Source: an uncultured virus (IMG/VR IMGVR_UViG_3300042887_002087)
Lineage: Duplodnaviria; Heunggongvirae; Uroviricota; Caudoviricetes
Virus record (IMG/VR): IMGVR_UViG_3300042887_002087
Location: 1-64,000 of that record
DNA length: 64,000 nucleotides
Direction: 5' to 3' (one strand)
Shown: positions 5,189 to 58,636 of the stretch, piece by piece
How the letters are laid out: every line of letters begins with the position of its first letter
How positions within the stretch are numbered: the stretch's first letter is position 1
Notes under the pieces: model-generated
The model's database searches: none
Told to the model about the DNA's origin: nothing
The model's input: only the letters and a program-made list of their open reading frames with translations
Translations under genes and position numbers: made by a program

Positions 5189-5503
5189 TTATTTTATTCT
5201 ATTTTCTTCAAAAAACTCAATTATTGAATTTAGGCACCACACCGCTCCCGATGTAAAAACAGCATCAGCAAAAAGATTCCAAAATAAATTTGTTTGGAAA
5301 TAGTGATTACATAAACCACCTAACGCAAGTGACATTACCCAACCTAAGTGAAAACCCAAACATAGGGGACATGTCATAAGTTTATAAAAGAAAGAAGATT
5401 TAGTTTTTACCCATTCTCTCAAGTCTTCAAAGATTGTCGACCAAGAAATTATACACATACATCCGTAAGCGGCAAGGACCCAAAATAACATTATCATAAT
5501 CAT
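5189..5503 (-). CDS. Small membrane protein, DUF1360-like
   Basis: Hydrophobic helices with a LMTCPLCLGFHLGW CxxC motif. Confidence 0.6.
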   Translation of the reverse strand: MIMIMLFWVLAAYGCMCIISWSTIFEDLREWVKTKSSFFYKLMTCPLCLGFHLGWVMSLALGGLCNHYFQTNLFWNLFADAVFTSGAVWCLNSIIEFFEENRIK

Positions 5504-7535: not shown

Positions 7536-8389
7536 CTTGAAATATATTTTGATAAATCCATTTGTAGGATTGCGTTGTTAATTTGATGTGGAACTTTATA
7601 TTCAACAAATGTTGCGTCGTCTTTTAATAATACAACTACATTACCTAATAATTTAGTATCGTTATATTTTGTTCCTTCCAACATCTTACGCAACAATCGA
7701 CCATATAATGGTAATTGTAAATAATAATGACCTAAAGCATTATCATGATAATTGTTAAATGGTGGATATAATCTACCCGTGTAATGATGAACTTCAAAGT
7801 TCTTTGGTTGGTTTGTTTTCCAATCTGTAATAACAAATCCAAATCCATCCTTCTCTTTGTTTTGCATCAACCATACTTTATCTGGTTGTCCTGTATATTG
7901 TTCTGTTGGGTCTCCTAATACGATTTCAGTATCTAACAACACGCCACCACGTTCTAACATTAAATCAAGAAATTGTTTTCCTGCAATAATCATGTTATCA
8001 CTCTTACGTTGTTGTTCTTCATTAATTTCAAATATTGGTTGTCTAACTTCTTTGTAGTTATCGAAACGACCAATTAATTCAGATTCTAATTCAAAGTGAA
8101 CACGACTACCCATATTAGTTGATAGGTCACCGGCTTGTTTCCATTCGGCAAGTAATTGTGCTTGACCTTCAGGATCTCCTTTAGACATCTTAAGTGCCAT
8201 ACCATCAGCATCAAATGGTTTATGAAATTTCTTTACAATTTTTGATACTGATGGAAAGTTCTTTTTAATTTCACCATCAACATCTTTCATATAGTAGATA
8301 TGTTCTTCTTCTATAAATGTTAATTCTAATTCTTGTCTTCTTTTTTCTAATAAGTCATTTATCTCTAATGAGATGTCTTTTAAATTCAT
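7520..8389 (-). CDS. PD-(D/E)XK exonuclease (RecB/Cas4-like family)
   Basis: PSVSKI, GSRVHFELE, GQPD...ITDWKT, LQLPLY. Confidence 0.8.
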   Translation of the reverse strand: MNLKDISLEINDLLEKRRQELELTFIEEEHIYYMKDVDGEIKKNFPSVSKIVKKFHKPFDADGMALKMSKGDPEGQAQLLAEWKQAGDLSTNMGSRVHFELESELIGRFDNYKEVRQPIFEINEEQQRKSDNMIIAGKQFLDLMLERGGVLLDTEIVLGDPTEQYTGQPDKVWLMQNKEKDGFGFVITDWKTNQPKNFEVHHYTGRLYPPFNNYHDNALGHYYLQLPLYGRLLRKMLEGTKYNDTKLLGNVVVLLKDDATFVEYKVPHQINNAILQMDLSKYISRWSKR

Positions 8390-8390
8390 T

Positions 8391-9332
8391 CTAATCTATT
8401 TGTTTCATTTTATATTCACTTAAGTTCCCTTGTAAATCGGCAATATCTTTATCCCCTTCTAATTTAATACTCCACACTTTCCCCATTAGTTTTCCACAAT
8501 TCAATCTATGGTATAATCTTTCTTGATCATTATACGCATCGGGATCTAGTACTATAACTATTTTTTTTGCATTATTGTAGAGTTTCATAAATAAATGTTC
8601 ACTAATAAACTTTCCTAACATTGGAATTGCATTAGGAATAAAAATACTATCGAAAGCACCTTCCACAATGTATATTGGTTCGTCCCAATTAATTAAATGT
8701 TCATTGAAAATAATTGTTTCCTTTTGTGCTTCAGGATTCATGTATTTTCTTTTTGTCTTCTGTAAATAAGAACGAGCAATAAAATAGTTTAATCTTTTAT
8801 TTTCATCATAAGATGGAATGATAATCCTACTTTCATATGGGCCACTATAACAAAATCCAATATTGTATATTTGCAACATCAAATCTGTTATGTGTCTATT
8901 CTTAATGTAGTTGTAAGCCTGCTTGTATTGTGGGGTCATCTTAAGTCCCATACTAGCATCTTTGAATGGAACAAATTCTTTTGGTAATTTTACAGGTTTA
9001 TATGTTCTTGCGGCAATTTCCTCATCATCTTCAGGTTTTAATAAAAGATATTTCTTTAATTGTTTTGGATTACCAAACTTCTTAATTAACTTATAGATTG
9101 ATCCGTGTGTACTATGTGTCTCAGCACATACCCAACATTTATAAACACCGTATTTGTAATTGATTTCAAGGTTTCCTTTACCGTCTCCTTTATCTAAACC
9201 TTTAATTTCGTGTGAACACACAGGGCAGTCAAAGGATACCTGATATCTATAATCATTATGATTCTTATAGTCACCAAATATATCTTCTAAAATATCAAAT
9301 ACGGCAGAATAGTCTACTTCTTGGGTGTTCAT
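8391..9332 (-). CDS. DNA primase (Zn finger + Toprim); start moved to MNTQEV
   Basis: CPVC...CWVC, RIIIP, KYMNP, VEGAFD, LDPD; the track's extension to 9404 runs through a hairpin region. Confidence 0.9.
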   Translation of the reverse strand: MNTQEVDYSAVFDILEDIFGDYKNHNDYRYQVSFDCPVCSHEIKGLDKGDGKGNLEINYKYGVYKCWVCAETHSTHGSIYKLIKKFGNPKQLKKYLLLKPEDDEEIAARTYKPVKLPKEFVPFKDASMGLKMTPQYKQAYNYIKNRHITDLMLQIYNIGFCYSGPYESRIIIPSYDENKRLNYFIARSYLQKTKRKYMNPEAQKETIIFNEHLINWDEPIYIVEGAFDSIFIPNAIPMLGKFISEHLFMKLYNNAKKIVIVLDPDAYNDQERLYHRLNCGKLMGKVWSIKLEGDKDIADLQGNLSEYKMKQID

Positions 9333-9359
9333 GATTATAATATAATAAAAAAGTATGAT

Positions 9360-9430
9360 AAAAAAAAATGGGAGCCGGACACCACGCCGACTCCCTCCAA
9401 CCAAACTTGTATTTCTACAAGTCCCGTCCT
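9360..9430 (-). ncRNA. Candidate small structured RNA
   Basis: TATTTATA motif at 9433-9440, then ACUUGUA-GAAA-UACAAGU hairpin, GGGAGUCGG/CCGGCUCCC hairpin and U-tract. Confidence 0.45.
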
Positions 9431-9484
9431 AATATAAATATATCTTTTACAGCTCGTAAAGTAAAACTTTAGTTGCCGAATATT

Positions 9485-10093
9485 TTAAGATGTTTGTTTG
9501 TTCATGTTAACATAACCAATAACGCAACATGCAGCATCAGCCATGTCATAATTTTCTTTTTTAAGATTACCCGTTTTACCGTATAACCAATTGATATCGG
9601 GACATACATTATTAACGTGTTCCCAAATAACGTGTTTCTTATCAATATCTCTTGGGTATCCACCAAATAAAACATTACGTCCTTTATCATTTGGACCAAC
9701 CAAATCAGGGAATGCAAATTTTCTTGAGTTATACGTTGAAATGAATGTTGGTAATACTCCTAATACATCGTAACAGTTCTTAAGTATCAATGTGTTATAA
9801 CGTAATAATGTTCCTATAGTATAAATGTTATTTGACTGCAACAATGGTTCTTCAATAATAACACGAAGAATTCCCATGTCTTTATAACTTTCCAAATGTT
9901 TTTTAAATGCGTCGGCCTTTTTAATTAATTCCTCAATCTTATCTTCTGGTTGTGGTTTAATTTTTGGTGAAAAATGTGTTAGTTCTAATAATTTAGAACC
10001 CGTCATATCAAATAAAGCAAATCCGATCGTCTTTGTGGAAATATCAAGACCGAGAATCTTTGGTTTGTTTTTGAAATTAATATCTATACTCAT
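9485..10093 (-). CDS. RuvC-like Holliday junction resolvase
   Basis: ILGLDISTKTIG, VIIEEP, DMADA. Confidence 0.8.
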   Translation of the reverse strand: MSIDINFKNKPKILGLDISTKTIGFALFDMTGSKLLELTHFSPKIKPQPEDKIEELIKKADAFKKHLESYKDMGILRVIIEEPLLQSNNIYTIGTLLRYNTLILKNCYDVLGVLPTFISTYNSRKFAFPDLVGPNDKGRNVLFGGYPRDIDKKHVIWEHVNNVCPDINWLYGKTGNLKKENYDMADAACCVIGYVNMNKQTS

Positions 10094-10132
10094 AGAGTAA
10101 AAATTAAATCAAAATAGTTGAATAGTAAAGTG

Positions 10133-12256
10133 TTAGAAGTCTAATTTTATTGCAAAAACCTGTGTTCCTGTTCTTTTAATTGGTGTAGATGTTTTAGCAA
10201 TCACTAACGGTTCTTTTAATGAATCTAATAATGCGACTTCGGTAATATATTTATCGGTTGTAATTTCAGTTTGTGTTGTTCCCGTAAACCTTGTTGGGTT
10301 TTGTGATGTTAAGAATTGCGTAGATGGTAAGTTTATTAACATATTCATTTCTTCAATATCGGTTGCCCTAACTAATCTAACACTACCAGGGAATGGTTGT
10401 TCGTCACCAAATTGTGGTTGTGTTGTTGATCCTGTTGTGTTCCACAAATAATCAGTTGTTACACCTGACATATGGTCTTCTAAATCAAATGACGTTCCAC
10501 CAGTGTAATCACTTTTTGTAATTGTAAACGTATAGTTAACCAAATTTATTGGGTCAATATATCCACTAGTATATCCTGATATCTTTGATGTTATATCAAT
10601 TTTTATCCATCCGTTTGGTGTTGGTGTTGTCCCTGTTTGTACTAATGCATAAAATTTGTCAGCAATAAAACCATCTTTAATACCGCTTGGGGTAGTGTAC
10701 ATATTTGGAAATGCTCCTGTATTAAATTTAAATGTTAATTGTGAAGGGGTTCCGTTCCCTGTTATTTTATTAAAATAATTGCATGGTAATGCATTTAATG
10801 TAGATCCACTAGTACTTGTATCTCCAAACATATATGTAAACCAAACAGTATCTCCTGTGGTTGGTAGTAAGGAATTAATCGCTGTTCCGTCACTTGGTAC
10901 CGATCCCAATTTAGGTGACGGTAACGTATACCGTCTATTAGATCTATAATCTAACATTGCAACCAACTCTTGATCGTCGAATACAACTATTTTGTTATTA
11001 ATAAAAACTTTACCTACTTTATTAGTTTGTTCATCTAACAAATATCTAAATTTTAATTCAAATCTAGAACCTGTTGTTCCTGAAAATGGTTTAATGTAAT
11101 AATCAACAGTATCCATTGTAAATTTTGCACCAAACGTATCGGTTGTATTTCTATGATAATGAATAAATGGGATATAAATTTCAAAATATTCTGTATCGCT
11201 AATTTCATCTCCGTCTTCATTTGTTACTATACTAATATCACAAGCATTTACACCCGATGGTGTACAATGACTAATATAATCATCATATTTAAAAAATCTT
11301 TCAGGATCATTTGTAACATCTCCAAGTTCAGAATAATGTATAATTGCAATACACCTTTGTTCTGACGGTAAAACTTCAACTAATTCATCGAATGAATTTT
11401 TAAATGTAGTTCCTGTTATAGTTGTTCCTACAAAATTTGTAAATGTTTGTCCTGATTTTGTATATCCTAATAATTGTTTTGTTGAAACATATTGATTACT
11501 ATTATAACCACTTAAACTTTCATCTAAATCATTTGTTGGGTAATCTGCCCCGATTGGTTTGTCCGACCATACTGTATTTAATCTCCATGAATTAAGTTGT
11601 TGTGTATAATCAATTGGGTTAAATATGTCAGTTGTTGGTGATTCGTCGAAATATTCATTTAATACTACTTGTACATTACCTGTTAGTCCTGTTAAATTAG
11701 GGAGTTTACGATCTAGTGTTAATGTATTATCTGTTTTTGATACTACCTTATAGATCATACTATTTGTTTGTCCCGTAATTGTTGTACTTGAAAAACCATC
11801 TAAAACTACTGTTATAAAATCATTTGGTTTAAAATTCGTACCATCCACCACAACGAGACTTGTTGTTCCACTTAGTTTACTATATGTTAATGGTTGTGGT
11901 GTTGTTTTTACTGTTGGTGCGGTTGAATACATAGATACAAATCCAGCACTACCCATTTCATTTCTTAAAGTTGTAGTTGAACTATTACTAATTGGTGTTC
12001 CGTATGTTGTTGAAGTTAAGACATCGCTACCTAAAGAATATGGATATTTTACCCCTGATTCGTTATCAAATGGGGAAAATACTTTTTGTTGTCCTGTTGT
12101 TCCTGTTAAACCACTAAAAATTGTATTATAATCATATTCAGAATCTCCAATTTGAAAGAATTCAATATTGAAACTACCTTTGGCAATTGCCTTTCTACCC
12201 TCATTTGTTATTCGGGCTGTTAAATATTCTGCGTGATTACTGTTTAAAAAACTCAT
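10133..12256 (-). CDS. Virion baseplate/tail-fibre anchoring protein
   Basis: N-term ITNEGRKAIA...FQIGD and C-term ITEVALLD...LVIAK resemble the two halves of a tail-collar/fibre anchor domain; Ser/Thr/Gly rich. Confidence 0.55.
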   Translation of the reverse strand: MSFLNSNHAEYLTARITNEGRKAIAKGSFNIEFFQIGDSEYDYNTIFSGLTGTTGQQKVFSPFDNESGVKYPYSLGSDVLTSTTYGTPISNSSTTTLRNEMGSAGFVSMYSTAPTVKTTPQPLTYSKLSGTTSLVVVDGTNFKPNDFITVVLDGFSSTTITGQTNSMIYKVVSKTDNTLTLDRKLPNLTGLTGNVQVVLNEYFDESPTTDIFNPIDYTQQLNSWRLNTVWSDKPIGADYPTNDLDESLSGYNSNQYVSTKQLLGYTKSGQTFTNFVGTTITGTTFKNSFDELVEVLPSEQRCIAIIHYSELGDVTNDPERFFKYDDYISHCTPSGVNACDISIVTNEDGDEISDTEYFEIYIPFIHYHRNTTDTFGAKFTMDTVDYYIKPFSGTTGSRFELKFRYLLDEQTNKVGKVFINNKIVVFDDQELVAMLDYRSNRRYTLPSPKLGSVPSDGTAINSLLPTTGDTVWFTYMFGDTSTSGSTLNALPCNYFNKITGNGTPSQLTFKFNTGAFPNMYTTPSGIKDGFIADKFYALVQTGTTPTPNGWIKIDITSKISGYTSGYIDPINLVNYTFTITKSDYTGGTSFDLEDHMSGVTTDYLWNTTGSTTQPQFGDEQPFPGSVRLVRATDIEEMNMLINLPSTQFLTSQNPTRFTGTTQTEITTDKYITEVALLDSLKEPLVIAKTSTPIKRTGTQVFAIKLDF

Positions 12257-12281
12257 ATGTTATAAATATCTTTATTTTATT

Positions 12282-13592
12282 TTAATCACAAGGACAAGTT
12301 ACGTTTGTAAATGATGAGAAGTATATTGCTGATGGATAGTTTGTTGCCATATAAGCACTATCTTTATTCGTGTCTATTCTTGAACAACATTCACTATTTA
12401 TCGTCACAAAACTTAAATTACCCGCACTATAATCTACATAATATATTGCTGTTAAATCACATCTCTCATACACATCATATGTTTGCGGTGTAGGAGTTGG
12501 TGGTAAAGGGGTTGAAGTTGGTGGTGCTCCTGAACAAGCTGTACAAGCTGTTTGTGCTGTTCCTGTTTGTGCCGAACCATCTCTCATAAATTCTCTTTCA
12601 TCAGTACCATCAGAAACCCAAAATGTAGTGTTATTAGTCATATCACCATACACGCTACCATACATTGTGGAAGATAAACCTTTTACTTTTGTTAAATTAC
12701 ATAAAGACGTACCTACAACCGTAATATTAACATTACTATATTCACCACCAGTACATGCTGTTGGTCCGTTAACTAAACTAACATAACCACTAAACGTAGT
12801 TTCAAATGGAGTTGGTTGTGGTGTTGCAGTTGCCGGTAAAGGAGTTGGTGTTGTAGGACAACTACAAGGCGTTGATCCATAAGATATATCCGTAATACTT
12901 GCACCAACTGCGAATAATGAACCATTTTGAATACAATCATTTATTACTTGTGGTCCAATACCAAATGTTAAATCAATTGTCTCACCGCAACAATCAATAT
13001 ATCTAATATCACCTCCCGTATCAACCTCAAATTGTACAGATGTTACACAATTAGGTGTTGGGGTTGGGGTTACAGTTGCCGGTAATGGGGTTACAGTTGC
13101 CGGTAATGGTGTTACAGTTGCTGGTAATGGGGTTACTGTTGCCGGTAATGGGGTTACAGTTGCTGGTAATGGGGTTACTGTTGGTGTATTTGTGGGAGTT
13201 GCCGTTGGTACAACTGTTGGTGTGGGAGTTGGTGTGGGAGTTGGTGTGGGAGTTGGTGTAGTCGGCATTCTTATAGTTAAATTATTATAATCAACACATT
13301 CCACACATATAACAGAGTCATCATCTTTTCCATTAAAATTTGATGGTATCACTCTAATTGTTTTTATTCCCTCGGGAACAACTACATATGTACCATTTAA
13401 ACTTGATCTTGGAATATTGGAATATCCAACTAAAGGAAAATATTTTGACGAGTCAGATCCTGAAAGGGATCCTGTACATAAGGATCCAGAATTGTTGGTA
13501 CAATCCTCTAAACTTCCCGTACAGGCATACAAATCAACATTTAATATTGATACTCCTAAAGTAAATCCTGTTAATCGTATTGTATATGACAT
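12282..13592 (-). CDS. Modular Pro/Thr-linker, Cys-rich virion appendage protein
   Basis: PT tracts, TVTPLPA repeats, Cys-rich modules shared with 21746..23878. Confidence 0.6.
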   Translation of the reverse strand: MSYTIRLTGFTLGVSILNVDLYACTGSLEDCTNNSGSLCTGSLSGSDSSKYFPLVGYSNIPRSSLNGTYVVVPEGIKTIRVIPSNFNGKDDDSVICVECVDYNNLTIRMPTTPTPTPTPTPTPTPTVVPTATPTNTPTVTPLPATVTPLPATVTPLPATVTPLPATVTPLPATVTPTPTPNCVTSVQFEVDTGGDIRYIDCCGETIDLTFGIGPQVINDCIQNGSLFAVGASITDISYGSTPCSCPTTPTPLPATATPQPTPFETTFSGYVSLVNGPTACTGGEYSNVNITVVGTSLCNLTKVKGLSSTMYGSVYGDMTNNTTFWVSDGTDEREFMRDGSAQTGTAQTACTACSGAPPTSTPLPPTPTPQTYDVYERCDLTAIYYVDYSAGNLSFVTINSECCSRIDTNKDSAYMATNYPSAIYFSSFTNVTCPCD

Positions 13593-13627
13593 ATTTCTAT
13601 AAATAGTATTATATAGAATTTAAACAA

Positions 13628-13653
13628 AAAACCCCTTAAAATAAAGGGGTTTT
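13628..13653. terminator. Bidirectional terminator-like hairpin
   Basis: AAAACCCCTT ... AAGGGGTTTT. Confidence 0.7.
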
Positions 13654-13675
13654 AATATTGTTTTGTTTTTAAATT

Positions 13676-14242
13676 TTATGTTGAGCAAACATTAATGTCC
13701 GTTACAAATCCACTTGCTGAAATTTGTCCTGTATATGTTGCAAATCCACTGTCGGTTCTATAATAAGCGTGATATTCATCCTCTCCACCATAACCACTTG
13801 TTAAACCAGCATCAGTAAAGAATTGTTCTACATTGGCTGCATTATTTGTTGCGGCAAATACTTCAGTTAAGAGACTTTGAGGTTCTCCACCACCACCAGT
13901 AATAGCAGCACAAGCCTGTCCAATATTCGATTGTGTAACTGATGGTCCTAATTGATATGAATATGATGTTACTACAGGTGTTGGACTCGGAGTAGGTGTT
14001 GGGGTTGCTGCTGCCGGTGTCGCCAGCCACGGGGTTGTAGTTGTACAAGTACCTGTACTTGCAATTGTTCCCCCTGTTATAGCATCATTAATACCGGTAA
14101 TTGTATGACCTGCTGTTAATTGGGCTTTTGTAATACCAGAGGCTAATTCTGATACAACGTTAGCATTTGTTGTTCCTGAAATATTAAACGGACCCGCTGC
14201 AGTTCCTGAGGATTCCGATTTTAATGTAAATGTTACTGTCAT
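13676..14242 (-). CDS. Small two-domain virion appendage protein
   Basis: Beta-rich N-domain ending STGTC, PT linker, C-domain homologous to the C-terminus of 14285..19336. Confidence 0.6.
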   Translation of the reverse strand: MTVTFTLKSESSGTAAGPFNISGTTNANVVSELASGITKAQLTAGHTITGINDAITGGTIASTGTCTTTTPWLATPAAATPTPTPSPTPVVTSYSYQLGPSVTQSNIGQACAAITGGGGEPQSLLTEVFAATNNAANVEQFFTDAGLTSGYGGEDEYHAYYRTDSGFATYTGQISASGFVTDINVCST

Positions 14243-14284
14243 ATTATTTGTTTCTTTTTATAAATATCTGTTTATTTTGTTTTA

Positions 14285-17200
14285 TTAAGGTTGTTCAGCA
14301 CAAACACTTTTGTCCGATACCTGACCAGTATATGAAATTCTTCCTGAATATGGTGATCCTCCACTATTTAAAGCGAATGAGTGATATTCATTTTCACCGG
14401 TATATACGTTTACTAAATTAGGATCTGTAAAGAATTGTTCTACATTAAATGGTTGATCTGCCGCCGCATATGCTAGAATATAGAAATCCTGACCGTAATT
14501 TTGACAAGCCAAACTCGATGATGTATAAGATGGTCCTAATTGATAAGCATACGATGTTGCAGGTACAGGTGTGTCTGTAGGTACCGGTGTTGCCGTTGGT
14601 GGGAATGGTGTTGGTGTTGGTGATTCTGTTGGTACGTTTGTTGGTACTGCTGTTGGTACGTTTGTTGGTACTGCTGTTGGTATTGCTGTTGGTACGTTTG
14701 TTGGTACGTTTGTTGGTACGTTTGTTGGTACGTTAGTTGGTACTGCTGTTGGTACGTTAGTTGGTACTGGTGTTGGTGTTGGTCCACAATATGTACAATC
14801 ACTTGATATGTTACAAGTATTACCACATTCAACATCAGTTAATAAACCTGAATTAATAATTGGAGCTGTTCCACCTTGTAGACAATGCTGTCTACTTGTA
14901 CCAGGTAATAAATTAATTGATTGTTCAGTTCCATTACAATTTGTTATTGTATAGTTTCCTGTTGTTCCACCTTCATTATAAATTGTCCAACATATACAAG
15001 GTAATGGTGTCGAAGTTGGTATTGCTGTTGGTACGTTTGTAGGTACTGCTGTTGGTACGTTTGTTGGTACTGCTGTTGGTATTGCTGTTGGTACGTTTGT
15101 TGGTACGTTTGTTGGTACGTTAGTTGGTATGTTAGTTGGTATGTTAGTTGGTATATTGGTTGGTTCTGGTGTATTAGTTGGGACCGCCGTTGGTACGTTA
15201 GTTGGTATGTTGGTTGGTATGTTGGTTGGTATATTGGTTGGTACTGCTGTCGGTACTGCTGTTGGTACGTTAGTTGGTAATGGTGTTGGTGTGCTGTAGA
15301 TAACATCAACATCAACATTAAAGTTACAATCTGGCGTTGGAGTTGGAGTTGGTGTTGTAGTGTTAGTAGGTGTTGGGGTTGGTGTATTTGTCGCTGGTAA
15401 TGGCGTAGGAGTTGGTGTATTTGTTGCGGATTCCGGTAATGGTGTTGGAGTATTTGTATTTGTTGGTGTAGGAGTTGGTGTACTATAGATAACATCAACA
15501 TCAACATTAAAGTTACAATCTGGTGTTGGAGTTGCGGTATTTGTTGGTGTTGGAGTTGGGGTATTTGTTGGTGTTGGAGTTGGGGTATTAGTTGCTAATT
15601 CTGGTGTATTTGTATTTGTTGGTGTTGGGGTTGGTGTTGGTGTACCATATATAATGTCCACATTTATTTCAAAATCACAATTTGGTGTAGAAGTTGGTGT
15701 ACTAGTTGGTGTTGGAGTATTTGTATTTGTTGGTGTAGGAGTTGGTGTACTATATACAACTAAAACATCAACATTAAAGTTACAATCTGGTGTTGGTGTA
15801 GGTGTTGCAGTGTTAGTAGGTGTTGGAGTTGGGGTACTATAAAATATTTCTACGTCAACAGCAAACTCACAATTTGGTGTGGCTGTTGGGGTTGGTGTTG
15901 GGGTTGGTGTACTAGTAACAACTAAAACATCAACTAAGAAATTACAATTTGGTGTAGGTGATGGAGTAGGTGTTGGTGTACTAGTAACAACTAAAACATC
16001 AACATTAAAATTACAATCTGGTGTTGGGGTTGGTGTTGGGGTTGGTGTACTAGTAACAACTAAAACATCAACATTAAAATTACAATCTGGTGTTGGGGTT
16101 GGTGTTGGTGTATTTGTTGCAGGTGATGCCGTTACTGTTGGTGTTGGGGTGGAAGGTAATGGTGTTGCAGTTGCTGGTAATGGTGTAGCTGTTGGTGTGG
16201 CTGTTGGTGTTGGTGTGTTTGTTGGAGTTGGTGTTGGTCCTGGCTCATATATCGCTAATCCTCCACTAAATCTACAATCTTTCACATCATTTTGACCAAT
16301 TGATACATATCCATAATCTAAATAATTATTTACTGTACAATCATTTGGACCGTATTTGTAAGATGTGAATTTAATTTTTTCACGTCCTTCATTATCTATG
16401 AAAAATTCATATGATATTATTTTTTGTTTTGTTGTTCCTGTAATCGATGAATTACCAATTTCGGTTCCGTATTGTGTGTTTTTACCTTCTCCATCTATAG
16501 TTGATCCAGAATAGGTGTTAATATATGTAATTGTATTTTGTATCGCCCTTTTCCACAGTATTTTTAATTGTTGGTCTATTTCACTATAAACCGAAAGGTT
16601 ATTAGTTGTACCTCCACTATATAATTTAACACTAATACCATTAGTTGTAACGGTATTATCGTTATTAAATGTTAATGTTGTTCCAGTTAATGAAGTTGCT
16701 CCACTGATTAAAACATATGTACATCCTGTAACATTTGTTGTTGTGTTTAATGCAGAAGCATTTTCAGGGTCAGTCATACCTGAATAAACTATACCGTCAA
16801 TTTCAAATATTGGATAAAGTTTAACATAACCATCGTGTTTTGTTTCCCCATCTTCATCAATTTCAATAGAAAAACCAAGATCATCGTCAGCCTGTTGTAT
16901 TAAATAATCAAAATAACTTGTAAATCCTGTTGGTATTTCTAAATCAAAATTAATGTGGTCTTCCGTTTCTGTAGGTTGACATCCATATCTATATTGATAT
17001 TTTGATCTACCAAAAATATTATTTGAAATTAAATTACCTCCCGTCCATAAAGTTGTTGCAGGAATAATTTGATCGATAACACTTGTCCAATAAGGACTCA
17101 TTTTTTCAATAAACAAATTAATGTCAGGAAATGTGTATGCTTTGTTAGGTGAAAAATCTCTAGTAATATAATCTTGATAGATGTCCTCTAATGTAATATA

Positions 17201-19336
17201 ATTCTTCTTATATTTTATTAAATTAGAATTTTTAATTTGTTGATGTATCATTAAATCGACATACTCAGCGAATGTTACTCCTGTTTGTGGTGTTAAACTA
17301 TTTGTACCGAATGTTGTACCTGTTGGACCAAAGTCTCTAGATTTACGATATATGTCATAATCAACCGCTTGTGCTGATGATAAATAAACTTCAATATTTT
17401 TTCTATTTAATAATAAACCAGAATTATCATTAAGATTTTCTGTTTGATTATTATCAATAATATTTTTTAATTTATATCCTGAGTCTAATCCTGGCAATTT
17501 TCTATAAACGTCAAAATAATCTTCACCATAGGTATATGCACTATTTTTAGTAACAATATTTTTAGTTCTTCCTGTTACCGTTGAATTATCGATATCAATC
17601 ACTAATGGTGATTTATGATCTGTAGTATTATCATACCAACCAGATCCTTTTTGGAAAAAATATTCTGTTGATCCCGTAATTCCTTTAGGTAATAACGTAT
17701 CTCCATTAACGGGATAATTTTCAGAATTAAATGTTGTTGTACCTGTAGTTATACCAGTATAATATCTATATGGAAGATATGTTACACCATTAATAGTTCC
17801 ACCTGTTGGTAAGAATATTCCTGTTTTGTAAGTTTTAGTTCCCGATATAACATCATAAATGTCACCTTTTAAATCAAATGATTTAGGTAAAGATATTACC
17901 TTGTAAACATATTGATTAATTTTAATCATTGGTTCAGGAGCACCTAAAAATCTTAAAAAAAATTCTAAAGATTGTCTTGTACCTTTTGATTTATAAATGT
18001 AAGCCAAGTTAACTAACAACCTTCGATAAAATTCATATTCGGCGTCTATTAAAGACGTTCCCGATACTAATCCAGAATATTGTTGTGATGTCTTAGTGTA
18101 TAATAATTCATCTAAACCTTTCTCATCAATTAAGTTAATTGTATCTAACCCTAAAGTATTTGCCAAGTTTTTTAACAATACATCGGGTACGTTATTAATA
18201 CCGTCATAACTTACATTTCTCATGTAAGCAATATTATCAATATATTTTTTTACACTATCAAAACTTTGTCCATATAATTGAAATAATGATTCGGCCTTTT
18301 TATCGGGACTATCAAATTCAAACAATTGAGGTGATGTTAAAAACCTAACAAATAAGTTAGACTTATAATCATCAATTTCATCTGCTATATTACTTAAATT
18401 TGTTAAATAACTATCATATTCTAAACCTGTAATTTTAATGTTCCAATCTTCCTTATCGGATAACGGCCAACTATAATTTACTGAAATTAATTCGGTTTTT
18501 GTTTCGTCAAAACTATCTCTTGGTACCTTAAAACTTGAAGTATATTTTGGAAAAGTGTCTCTGTTTAATAAACTTTCCTCTAAATCATCTAAACCTTTAA
18601 AGAACTCTTCAACAACACCATCATTTGGTTTAATTAATATATTTTCAGAAAACCCCGTTAAGTTATCAAATGGTTTACCACTTACCTTTAATGAAATTAT
18701 ATTATCACTATTAGGTTCAATATATGAAATTACATCATATGTTTTTCCACTTATTGAAATTAAATAGTTTTTAAAAGAAGTATAAAAATCTCTGTTTTTA
18801 TTAATTGAAGGTAATATGGTATTACTTTTCGGTGTAACCATAACAATCGAAAATGGATTGTATAGTTTACTGTACTCAACTTTAAATTGAGTGGTGTTAC
18901 TTATATTATCATATGTAATATTATTAGCGGTAAAATTCGTTACTTTAATTAAACTATTAGAATCAATTAAAATAGCCGCAGGAAAATTATTAATTATATT
19001 AGTTGTCGCAACACCTAGTCTACTTTTTAATGATCCAAATAAAGATTTAGCAGCATCATTTTTAGAACCTTTAAATTTTATTTCTTTATTTTTACTTGTA
19101 GTACCACTCGTAGTTGTACTTGAAGTTTGTCCTTTTAAATCATCTAATGTTAAAAAATTAGAAAACGGATTTGTTTTAAAATTCTTTGTATCTCTTTGTA
19201 TTACCTCACTATCTAACGCAAAGTTCGTATTAGTCAATTGACCGGTACCCGTGGTAATTTGATTACCGACTAGATTGTCACTGAATGTATCGGCACCACT
19301 CGCAGCTTGACTTGGAATTTTACGTAATTTTGCCAT
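14285..19336 (-). CDS. Baseplate wedge protein (P2 gpI-like core) with mucin-like repeat tail
   Basis: [14 protein letters not shown]...[21 protein letters not shown]-terminal ~600 aa of PT repeats and Cys modules. Confidence 0.7.
14627..15280 (-). repeat. 12-nt coding tandem repeats, PT(N/A)(V/I), in two blocks
   Basis: gttggtacgttt / gttggtactgct units at about 14627-14770 and 15014-15280. Confidence 0.9.
15290..16092 (-). repeat. Eight copies of P(D/N)C(N/D/E)FxVDVxVxxS separated by PT linkers
   Basis: Counted in the translation of 14285..19336; near-identical nucleotide units aacatcaacattaaa(a/g)ttacaatctgg. Confidence 0.9.
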
Positions 19337-21745: not shown

Positions 21746-23878
21746 TTAGCACTGTTCTGATGATAATCCTGTTATTTGTCCTGTACTATTATTAATATCC
21801 CACGTTTCTCCATTAATTTGAACATATTCGTATCCTATCAAAGCATTAGGGAATGTATCAACATATACAAAGCATCCTGTTGTAAAATCAAATGGTCCAC
21901 AATCAGAATAGAATGTTCTATTATTTGATGCGTCATTACAAACTCCACTAAATGTATTTCCTCTACCACAACCTGTATATGTTGTTAAAGGTATTGTAGT
22001 TGCTGTTGGAGTAGGCGTTGGTGTTGAACCGCCAGGAGTTGCTGTTGGCGTTGCGGTTGGAGTTGCAGTTGGCACACCTGAACAAGAGGTACATGCTGTT
22101 TGAGCTGTTCCTGTTTGTGCCGAACCATCTCTCATAAATTCTCTTTCATCAGTACCATCAGAAACCCAAAATGTAGTGTTATTAGTCATATCACCATATA
22201 CGTTACCATATATTGAAGAAGATAAACCTAATACTTTAGTTAGGTTACATAATGAAGTACCTTGAACTGTAACAGTCACCGCCTCATATTCACCACCACT
22301 ACAAGCTGATGGACCATTAACTAAACTCACATAACCACTAAATGTAGTTTGGAATGGTGTTGGAGTTGGTGGTAAAGGAGTTGGTGTTGCAGTTGGTGGT
22401 AAAGGAGTTGGTGTCGCCGTTGGTGGTAAAGGAGTTGATGTTGGTGTTGGTGTTGCGGTTGATGGAAGACATGACGTTTCACCATAAAACACAGATGAAA
22501 TTGACGCGATTACTCCTGATAATGAATTATTTTGAATACAATCATTAATTACTTGTGGTCCAATACCAAATGTCTCCGTAACTTCACTACCCTCACAATT
22601 AAAATATCTAACAGTTCCACCAAAATCAACTTCAAAACTTACTGACGTTACACAAGGACTTTCTGTAGGTGTTGGGGTTATTGTAGGAATTACCGTAGCC
22701 ACTGGTGTAGGTGTTGAAGTTGGGAAAGGTGTTGACGTTGGTCTAGGTGTCGCCGTAACTCCACCAATAGGTGTCGGAGTTGGGGTTGATACCGGTAATA
22801 ATACTCCTCCTCCTTTTTCGTAGAATGTTATACTATCAGTCGTTGTATAACCTGTACCTATTCTATCTAATTTTGTTGTCCCCGTATATCTATATATTTG
22901 ATATGTTCTTTCATAGTGATCAAAATCAATTTGATAATACATATCTTTTTCTTCCGTTATATTATAACTTGTTGTTTGACCTGAATTTATAAAATCTAAT
23001 ATCTCACCTCTATCCGCATTGAAAAATTTTGCTGTCATGAAAAACGTATTCATTCCGTGATAAAATGGTGATTTATTATCATTTGGGTTTTTTATAATTT
23101 CATATGTTAAATTTGGATATTGAAATGTTTGTCCCGTCCAACCAATTAATGTGGTACCTGTAGTACCTGTAGTTATTGGTATGTTTACTTGTGTTATATC
23201 GTTATTTTCATTTGTAAATAAAATAGTTTGTTCCGTTGTTGCGGTAAAACTATACATATCTAATGTTGTAGTTCCACTTAAATTAGTATCTGTTAAAACA
23301 CTCTCATTATCAAACCAAAACAAATACATATTTTCTTTGTTTCGATAATTTGAACCTGTAAAAACAGGTACAAATATATTATACCCATAGTTACTACCTG
23401 TATGAAAATATTTTTCACCTAAGGGTAATGCTAAATTTTTAGAATTTATTAATCTTCTATTTTGTCTTGTCGGTGGCTCACATGTTAAAACATAATTTGT
23501 TATACTACCGGGTGTTTTATAAAACTCTAATCTAAAGAAACTTTCAGTTGATTGTTTTGTCATCAATTGATTTTCTTGTGTTGATATACCAACAGGATTA
23601 TAATCTAAAACATAATTTGGTGTGTCTCCACTTGTTGCAAAATAAAATTGAAACCATATGTCAGTTTGTGTAAAATTAGGTGGGTAAGTGTTTCCCGTTA
23701 CAATATATGGTTTATGAATGTATCTAACTGTTTCATAATTTTTAGATGGATTAATAATATCTTTTAAAACTTCATCTTCAAAATCGGCAAGATTATCCTG
23801 CCAACCCAAATCGGTTCTAAAACTTTGTTCACTATTAACTACAATATTTAAATTGTTACTATTTTTTAAAATTTCCAT
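21746..23878 (-). CDS. Virion protein with C-terminal PT linkers and Cys-rich modules
   Basis: Two modules homologous to those of 12282..13592. Confidence 0.6.
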   Translation of the reverse strand: MEILKNSNNLNIVVNSEQSFRTDLGWQDNLADFEDEVLKDIINPSKNYETVRYIHKPYIVTGNTYPPNFTQTDIWFQFYFATSGDTPNYVLDYNPVGISTQENQLMTKQSTESFFRLEFYKTPGSITNYVLTCEPPTRQNRRLINSKNLALPLGEKYFHTGSNYGYNIFVPVFTGSNYRNKENMYLFWFDNESVLTDTNLSGTTTLDMYSFTATTEQTILFTNENNDITQVNIPITTGTTGTTLIGWTGQTFQYPNLTYEIIKNPNDNKSPFYHGMNTFFMTAKFFNADRGEILDFINSGQTTSYNITEEKDMYYQIDFDHYERTYQIYRYTGTTKLDRIGTGYTTTDSITFYEKGGGVLLPVSTPTPTPIGGVTATPRPTSTPFPTSTPTPVATVIPTITPTPTESPCVTSVSFEVDFGGTVRYFNCEGSEVTETFGIGPQVINDCIQNNSLSGVIASISSVFYGETSCLPSTATPTPTSTPLPPTATPTPLPPTATPTPLPPTPTPFQTTFSGYVSLVNGPSACSGGEYEAVTVTVQGTSLCNLTKVLGLSSSIYGNVYGDMTNNTTFWVSDGTDEREFMRDGSAQTGTAQTACTSCSGVPTATPTATPTATPGGSTPTPTPTATTIPLTTYTGCGRGNTFSGVCNDASNNRTFYSDCGPFDFTTGCFVYVDTFPNALIGYEYVQINGETWDINNSTGQITGLSSEQC

Positions 23879-58521: not shown

Positions 58522-58636
58522 TGATTTTTGTTTGGTTAATTAATTTTATTACTTATCTTATAAATATCTTTGTTTTTATCAAAGATTTCCCAACTTTTCT
58601 TAAAAAGATAGTTATTTATCTTTTAATATCTTTTAT

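Follow-up and report, generated by a model that had tools for sequence, protein, structure and literature searches.

The minus strand of the DNA studied here carries, in the 153-nt intergenic gap that runs from a resolvase ORF to a primase ORF, an RNA element whose two-hairpin fold is under strong purifying selection. From sequence comparison, the element appears to be an RNA family specific to a group of giant freshwater phages and absent from Rfam. We give somewhat better than an even chance to the reading that it is an independently transcribed phage small RNA acting through its loop. A first-pass annotation of the same DNA had proposed a self-contained small RNA between the resolvase and the primase, and the structure, the hairpin flanks, the loop and a promoter-like block support that proposal. 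The DNA, called the window below, is a stretch of 64,000 nt and part of a 75-kb virus record (G000) that is estimated to be 24% complete.

Architecture of the element

Read on the minus strand, the element runs from TATATTTATA and AGGACGGGAC through a GAAA-capped stem and GUUUGGUUGGA to a terminator hairpin and nine U (Table 1), and inspection of that strand recovered every part that the first-pass annotation had listed. The GNRA-capped stem described there is capped by GAAA and is indeed extended by G-U and A-U pairs. The second hairpin has the build of an intrinsic terminator, with a stem of nine pairs (seven of them G-C) followed by T9, and it stands first in the list that the terminator scan returned for the window; the scan accepted loops of 3-8 nt, the 8-nt loop of the element being at the upper limit. 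The 86-nt stretch folds at -31.1 kcal/mol, compared with -17.5 +/- 2.8 kcal/mol for 200 shuffles (z = -4.79), none of which was as good (0/200). It had also been remarked from the letters that the element is more GC-rich than its surroundings, and this is borne out by a G+C content of 0.49 at 9361-9431 against 0.22-0.44 in the adjoining 100-nt windows and about 0.31 in the genome.

A mechanical ORF that starts from TTG at 9404 passes in frame through the element into the primase. It is unconserved among 42 relatives, and the coding reading was rejected because the open stretch in frame 5' of the primase ATG varies there from 0 to 52 codons. ARAGORN found no tRNA or tmRNA gene in the 64-kb window.

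Table 1. Features of the element, its neighbourhood and related records. Positions refer to the window unless a record is named.
Feature	Position	Strand	Description and basis
Predicted small RNA	9362..9430	-	about 68 nt (66-69 nt); ends placed from the box position and the U-run
TATTTATA word	9440-9433	-	sequence; overlaps the -7-like box TATATTTA
AGGACGGGAC	start 9430	-	sequence
Hairpin 1	9399..9428	-	predicted fold; basal helix GAC.GGGAC / GUUU.GUU (G-U-rich), covarying distal stem, GAAA loop at 9415-9412
Hairpin 1 stem CUUGUA-GAAA-UACAAG	9421-9406	-	extended via G-U and A-U pairs
GUUUGGUUGGA	3' of hairpin 1 stem	-	sequence
Linker GG(U)A between the hairpins	9396..9398	-	GG at least 90% conserved
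Intrinsic terminator hairpin GGGAGUCGG-CGUGGUGU-CCGGCUCCC	9370..9395	-	9 bp; terminator scan
Terminator loop CGUGGUGU	9386-9379	-	8 nt; sequence
U-run (T9) of the terminator	9360..9368	-	sequence and terminator scan
Terminator loops with GGUGU in divergent clades			GAUGGUGUAG; UGUUGGUGUAC; UUUUGGUGUAA; CACGGUGUAA
Upstream element GGCAAC	9472..9477	-	about -47 to -42 of the predicted start; GCAA at least 90% conserved (29 relatives)
Putative -33-like box TTTTAC	9461..9466	-	two T invariant in 29/29
-7-like box TATATTTA	9435..9442	-	T, A, T, A, T, T invariant, last A at least 90% (29 sequences)
Second box TATATTAT	9337..9344	-	5 nt before the primase ATG
Box (G/T)ATATTTATA, sites 1-5	301-294, 6170-6163, 12268-12261, 13605-13598, 14266-14259	-	before ATG
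Box (G/T)ATATTTATA, sites 6-10	20265-20258, 40903-40896, 51830-51823, 53740-53733, 58566-58559	-	before ATG
DnaG-type primase gene	8391..9332	-	phrog_47, E 4.7e-39; Pfam DNAG_N at 25.9 bits, just under the 26-bit cut-off
RuvC-like resolvase gene	9485..10093	-	phrog_159, E 3e-6
Ribosomal protein bS21 genes	G001:C1:122185-122331 (L363); G002:C1:17858-18016 (L364)		above the Pfam cut-off

Covariation of the fold

The first-pass annotation had suggested a covariation test across related phages, and had held that conservation of the terminator stem alone would speak against a small RNA. In an alignment built from sequence only, 13 of the 18 predicted pairs carry compensatory changes. A model-based alignment holds 51 matches, 42 of them distinct sequences; among these 42, standard pairs occupy 98.4% of cells compared with 69.4% in shuffles, and both sides of a pair have changed in 186 cells compared with 50.6 +/- 5.7, a value of 186 being reached in 0/500 shuffles. 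When the partner columns are slid by 1-3 positions, 24-82 compensatory cells are found in place of 186, and the covariation score is 0.747 against 0.197. The model-based alignment is fitted to the model and thereby favours structure, and the independent sequence-only alignment agrees with it. As comparative evidence for a structured RNA family, these results are uncommonly clean.

The changes are spread over both hairpins. All nine pairs of the terminator stem covary (42 distinct sequences), as do the three modelled pairs of the distal stem of hairpin 1. In the basal helix of hairpin 1 one pair of six covaries and the other five barely vary, so that this helix is supported by energy and conservation and not by covariation. 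The flanks of hairpin 1, GACGGGA and UUURGUUGG, have conserved sequences. Since the covariation of hairpin 1, its flanks, the loop UGGUG and the block upstream are all conserved, conservation reaches well beyond the terminator stem. The terminators of the relatives mostly have 8-10 pairs, chiefly G-C, followed by T6-T9, with a single T5 exception (L014).

One pair of the terminator is U-G in 18/42 sequences. Such frequent G-U pairs would be C-A on the opposite strand, and the fold therefore belongs to the minus-strand transcript. This bears on a DNA-level signal, namely a replication origin, a primer-RNA start or a single-strand hairpin for loading the primase, which we consider very improbable. 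The element does lie inside the replication module and adjoins the primase, the combination of a promoter and a G-rich transcript is reminiscent of primer-forming origins, and a hairpin site is reminiscent of the G4-type primase sites of phages. However, many of the G-U pairs would become C-A mismatches if the opposite strand folded, the U-run and the boxes are what transcription would call for, the cumulative GC skew has no turn here (nearly all genes of the window are on the minus strand, and the sole change of coding strand is near 60.6 kb), and the element is a single copy with neither iterons nor repeats.

Two further structural ideas were dropped. A G-quadruplex was rejected because many members vary between A and G in the first GG of GGUUGG, and inspection for a pseudoknot between the loop and conserved segments upstream showed no complementarity. 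In one clade the element is enlarged to about 140 nt (L318:1322-1462): GGUUGG pairs with an inserted CCAACC, an extra hairpin is present, and a distal CCGU is the partner of the 5' ACGGG. The terminator loop of this version still contains GGUGU.

Distribution among phages

A covariance model built from 35 distinct sequences matches the window at 9361-9431 with 88 bits (E 3.5e-21). Among 80 related loci collected with the primase protein as query, 73 give exactly one match, of 52-93.5 bits, which in every case is on the strand of the primase and stops about 28-60 nt short of its ATG. The seven loci with no match are the most distant ones (primase identity 50-53%), and their resolvase and primase genes nearly abut. 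Over whole records, there is one strong match each in G000 (75 kb), G001 (335 kb) and G002 (316 kb). Weaker matches, at most 15.7 bits in the window and at most 18.9 bits in G001 and G002, were rejected as paralogues; the best two of them (L085, L086) are, by inspection, apparently coding sequence or an unrelated terminator.

An independent pattern scan of the viral collection also gave 80 loci. All 28 that score at least 64 bits lie between homologues of the resolvase and the primase, and among the other 52 there are three weak matches of 13-20 bits elsewhere and otherwise nothing at E up to 1; judged from these scores, the 52 appear to be chance pattern matches. In three of the 28 (L119, L130, L131), a gene of about 800 nt is inserted between the resolvase and the element, and in L045, L047, L055 and L305-L317 the element likewise stays with the primase though another gene separates the resolvase. 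The element therefore travels with the primase. Two divergent primase queries added 99 new loci, of which 17 score at least 47.9 bits, one scores 30.9 bits and eight score 18.8-23 bits; every one of these matches lies just 5' of the primase.

An Rfam search, one of the checks proposed with the first-pass annotation, places the element outside every family: Rfam 15 gave no match at the gathering threshold over the whole 64-kb window, and with permissive filters (E up to 10) the region 9250-9550 gave only three hits, of 14-16 bits (E 2.2-5.6) where the thresholds are 60-99 bits. A strict 23-base pattern was found three times in 185,579 prokaryote species (one genome each), and none of these matches fits the model (best 9.8 bits); this bacterial negative covers the strict 23-base pattern only. 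In the accessible portions of the small-RNA literature on jumbo phages and Flavobacterium phages, no description of the element was found. In the window, a GGGAGCGGTGTGGTG stretch near 5250 lies, judged by eye, inside an apparent small open reading frame.

The phage group and its likely host

The genome of the window is that of a myovirus with tail sheath, baseplate, SbcCD, helicase, ribonucleotide reductase, SSB and a UvsX-like recombinase. Its relatives are contigs of 210-335 kb, among them G001 (335.6 kb, 31.2% G+C, 100% complete) and G002 (316 kb, 95% complete), and both of these encode ribosomal protein bS21. No bS21 gene is present in the 75-kb record of the window, probably because that record is a fragment. 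A nucleotide search of 8000-13000 against 50,697 phage records gave no match, and the nearest cultured primase, with 35% identity, is that of a Flavobacterium phage (a myovirus).

Freshwater phages that encode bS21 and have predicted Bacteroidetes hosts are given as 293-331 kb in size with 31.0-33.7% GC in the available part of their description (PMC9723584), and the near-complete relatives agree with these jumbo phages in size, G+C and bS21 as far as that part goes. The bS21 gene, the match in genome size and G+C and the Flavobacterium-phage primase together make a host in the Bacteroidota likely.

The complete relative G001 has, at about 86.3-91.6 kb (L212:6275-6679 (-), L212:10452-11590 (-)), a predicted tmRNA gene with the tag peptide ATSTVAVA* and four tRNA genes (Glu-ttc, Ser-tga, Met-cat and Thr-tgt), in which CCA is not encoded.

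Promoter-like boxes before the element and before the primase

The whole intergenic region was aligned in 29 diverse relatives. Upstream of the element, three parts are conserved, which are the GGCAAC element, retained even in relatives whose upstream gene differs from the resolvase, and the -33-like and -7-like boxes. The two boxes keep an ungapped, fixed distance, and about 20 columns between them are less than 70% conserved (29 sequences). The 17-nt block GGCAACTAANNTTTTAC has a single exact occurrence in the window, where its five other matches have three mismatches each.

The sigma-A -7 box of Bacteroidia is TAnnTTTG at -12 to -5 in the consulted parts of PMC9723704 and PMC6847099. TATATTTA agrees with it at five of the six defining bases, with A in place of G at -5, for a host that is itself predicted. 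The TTTT(AC) 20 nt 5' of the -7-like box was compared with the -33 motif of Bacteroidia (TTTG), which is itself a weak one and is so called in the available text of PMC6847099. By analogy, the boxes may be read as a Bacteroidia-type promoter: with -5 at 9435, the predicted +1 falls on A9430, the first base of the conserved RNA. A TATAYTT-type box stands 5-9 nt 5' of the primase ATG in most relatives, and the -12 to -5 rule applied to TATATTAT in the window puts +1 on A9332 of the primase ATG itself. Thus the primase probably has its own, leaderless transcript, again by analogy with Bacteroidia promoters.

The TATTTATA word was said in the first-pass annotation to sit before start codons elsewhere and before hairpins here. 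This placement holds, as 10 of its 11 minus-strand copies are followed by an ATG at a distance of 3-45 nt and the remaining copy stands before the RNA element. As an over-represented word, TATTTATA does not hold up, 15 copies being found in the window where 19.1 +/- 4.0 are expected. A close kin of the box of the RNA (G/TATATTTA), which shares the TATTTATA word, precedes 10 ORF starts in the window; the recurrent box, (G/T)ATATTTATA, stands 3-45 nt before ATG starts on the minus strand at these 10 sites. By the -12 to -5 rule, several window mRNAs with this box would carry leaders of 0-5 nt. Leaderless starts make up 5.5% in Flavobacterium psychrophilum, according to the part of PMC9723704 at hand, and the share predicted for the window is far higher.

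An invariant loop on drifting terminator stems

The core UGGUG of the terminator loop is invariant in the 35 aligned sequences and in the 29, and the loop keeps GGUGGUGU across the members. The stems below it differ so far that six or more unrelated sequences occur (among them GGGAGUCGG, GGAGGUCAG, GGGGGAGA, CCCUCGGA, GGGGCGAGA and GUCCCUGGGA), and GGUGU persists in terminator loops of 8-11 nt just upstream of the primase in clades that share little else. Since such conservation is unnecessary for termination, the loop is most likely a functional surface.

The same observation weighs against a mere transcription insulator, in which the terminator ends the resolvase unit, promoters restart transcription and the short RNA is functionless. 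The terminator and the boxes are real features, as this explanation needs, and a target search among phage start regions gave none. An insulator, however, needs no promoter firing into a terminator 68 nt away, no hairpin 1 with a covarying stem and conserved flanks, and no invariant 5-base core in a loop of 8-11 nt across clades with wholly different stems. Moreover, two other terminator-like sites inspected in the window have unrelated loops, and the combination of a G-C-rich hairpin, a GGUGU loop and a T-run was found nowhere else in the window or in the 335-kb relative. We regard the insulator as unlikely.

For a small RNA acting through its loop, partners were sought among start regions. 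Pairing of the two conserved G/U-rich segments, GUUUGGUUGGAG and AGGUGGUGUU, with these translation-start regions (400 in G001, 45 in the window) was no better than that of shuffled seeds, the best duplex in G001 being -13.2 for the real seeds compared with a shuffled mean best of -14.4. Complements of GGACGGGAC with at most one mismatch occur in the window on the non-coding strand only, and G001 has 13 one-mismatch sites. In the window and in some clades the loop can also pair with the first codons of the primase (AACACC). Clades whose primase starts with MVEQ, MVNQ or MTEN lack this pairing, and as a conserved interaction it was therefore rejected.

The leader of the tail-sheath gene (window 58530-58539 (-); G001 gene at 154869) has AACCAAAC, which is complementary to GUUUGGUU of the RNA. 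AACCAAAC stands 8-15 nt before the tail-sheath ATG in both the window and G001 and tops or nearly tops both target lists; the pairing is not significant against shuffled seeds, and we take it as a lead only, because the two genomes are closely related.

Two side observations concern motifs of the RNA. On the plus strand at 13180-16234 and 22017-22453 there are dozens of GTTGGTGT copies, often with a spacing of 6 or 12 nt (the coding strand reads ACACCAAC), inside the ORFs 12282-13592, 14285-19336 (1683 aa) and 21746-23878. They probably encode Thr/Pro-rich repeats; they inflate the near-match count for the loop motif and are unrelated to the RNA. At 23131-23145, within ORF 21746-23878, the minus strand reads TTGGTTGGACGGGAC, which joins both conserved flank motifs of the RNA in the sense they have there; G001 has three different bases at the matching site, and the fusion is probably due to chance.

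UGGUG is also the exact complement of CACCA, which (as C72-A73-C74-C75-A76) is the 3' end of tRNAs with C72 and A73. We attach little probability to the idea that the terminator loop, unusually large and with UGGUG(U) kept in it, serves to dock a single-stranded 3' end belonging to the translation machinery of the host. One candidate partner may be, by analogy, the tRNA acceptor end, the conservation of the loop beginning at the U that faces the terminal A76. Another may be the 3' tail of the 16S rRNA of Bacteroidia, the region addressed by the phage bS21, since GGUGU presumably complements ACC and the two bases preceding ACCUCCUUUCU there. That tail has been given as ACCUCCUUUCU (PMC7797042). 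If true, docking would mean that a phage RNA senses or alters the translation status of the host from within the replication module.

Attenuation and transcripts

To examine attenuation, 42 distinct variants were folded up to the end of the terminator loop. In all of them (42/42), hairpin 1 persists after truncation and the 5' arm and loop of the terminator stay essentially unpaired; no antiterminator, that is no fold competing with the terminator, was found, and the terminator looks constitutive. The extra stability of the truncated RNA averages -0.6 kcal/mol and is -4.8 kcal/mol at most. With no competing fold, a classical riboswitch or attenuator is unlikely.

The first-pass annotation had named an attenuator for the primase as its alternative, and the absence of a competing fold (42/42) and the conserved box of the primase weaken it. 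The main rival is a factor-dependent form, a cis-acting leader in which transcription from the upstream box would normally end at the terminator and a phage or host factor reading the loop or the G-U-rich helix would permit read-through into the primase gene and those behind it. Promoter, structured RNA, terminator and an ORF 28-60 nt further on make up a classic leader layout, position and orientation before this one gene are strict, the element stays with the primase where another gene intervenes before the resolvase, the conserved loop would suit recognition by a factor, and one RNA-library contig spans the terminator. On the other hand, none of the 42 variants offers an antiterminator, the terminator is strong in most relatives, and the primase retains its own box 5-9 nt before the ATG. 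We consider such a leader possible and on the doubtful side.

A ligand-sensing riboswitch controlling the primase seems to us hardly credible. Conserved unpaired bases around covarying stems, beside a terminator and upstream of a gene, are what such an RNA would have, and some small riboswitches, for example the HMP-PP class, embed conserved bases in the terminator. Against it, the element matches no Rfam family even at E up to 10 and has no mutually exclusive fold, the few pattern matches in the species genomes do not fit the model whereas riboswitch classes are normally cellular, and the likely unpaired space is very small.

The RNA-library data consist of assembled contigs of four metatranscriptome runs, from which ends, strand and level are not readable. 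An estuary run has a single 157-nt contig over 9302-9446. Its ends do not match those predicted for the RNA, as it begins 16 nt before the predicted start and extends 60 nt past the terminator, and it could equally be read-through RNA or DNA carry-over. Three lake runs have contigs over parts of the primase and the resolvase and none over 9317-9499. Because contigs cannot show ends and the libraries may hold DNA, these data neither show nor refute a discrete RNA.

Comparison with known systems

Two-hairpin, trans-acting small RNAs that end in an intrinsic terminator include the cyanobacterial Yfr1 and GcvB, the latter with a G/U-rich seed. The element is like them in its small size, in having its own (here predicted) promoter, a 5' hairpin and a terminator hairpin, and in its short, G/U-rich conserved segments beside stems that drift by compensatory change. 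Unlike them, it is a phage-encoded RNA whose invariant bases occupy the terminator loop instead of a single-stranded linker, and it has neither an Rfam match nor a target found among phage start regions. Small intergenic non-coding RNAs are also described for the giant Pseudomonas phages phiKZ, 201phi2-1 and PA5oct in the accessible accounts of these phages. Those RNAs came from transcript mapping in phages of another host phylum, whereas the element is known from comparative structure. Rfam, in which the element has no match, may not hold the Pseudomonas jumbo-phage RNAs.

The bulge UGGN of the T-box antiterminator and the loop GGU in L15 of RNase P pair with the NCCA 3' end of tRNAs. The UGGUG of the element resembles them in its complementarity to a tRNA 3' CACCA, as a candidate for pairing. 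Unlike a T-box leader, the element has no Stem I, no specifier and no T-box sequence context, and carries its motif in the terminator loop and not in an antiterminator; at about 68 nt with two hairpins only, it gave no Rfam T-box hit at E up to 10.

In the rpsU-dnaG-rpoD operon of E. coli, the intrinsic terminator T1 between rpsU and dnaG limits read-through into the primase gene. The likeness is an intrinsic terminator immediately 5' of a primase gene and does not imply homology; T1 is not known to have a promoter of its own before it, and we know of no conserved structured RNA there. The boxB of lambda nut and the put of HK022 are also hairpins of phage RNAs, and either the transcription machinery or a phage protein recognises their loops or bulges. 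These hairpins differ from the element in sequence, are not terminators themselves and act on terminators downstream.

Proposed mode of action and implications

For the small RNA that we favour, the RNA polymerase would start at about 9430 from the Bacteroidia-type -7 box TATATTTA and stop in the U-run, releasing a discrete RNA of about 68 nt, and a leaderless mRNA starting from the second box would then serve for the primase. The small RNA may act via its conserved terminator loop, which could either dock by a loop-to-single-strand contact on an RNA with CACC(A) or ACACC or bind a protein; another candidate contact is the conserved, G-U-rich basal helix of hairpin 1. Because its gene sits in the replication module, the role of the RNA is most likely the timing or tuning of early or host functions.

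The giant freshwater phages of Bacteroidota are abundant and uncultured, and they have so far been described almost only by their proteins; in the portion of the report on the bS21-encoding phages available to us, the terms 'non-coding' and 'tmRNA' are absent (PMC9723584). Their Bacteroidota hosts translate without Shine-Dalgarno pairing, as stated for example in the accessible part of PMC6847099. The covariance model is ready for annotating the genomes of this phage group. For experiments, the element offers a precise handle in its invariant loop, which is carried on a terminator stem that drifts freely, and if the element is a regulator, it would be among the first RNA regulators from phages of Bacteroidota.
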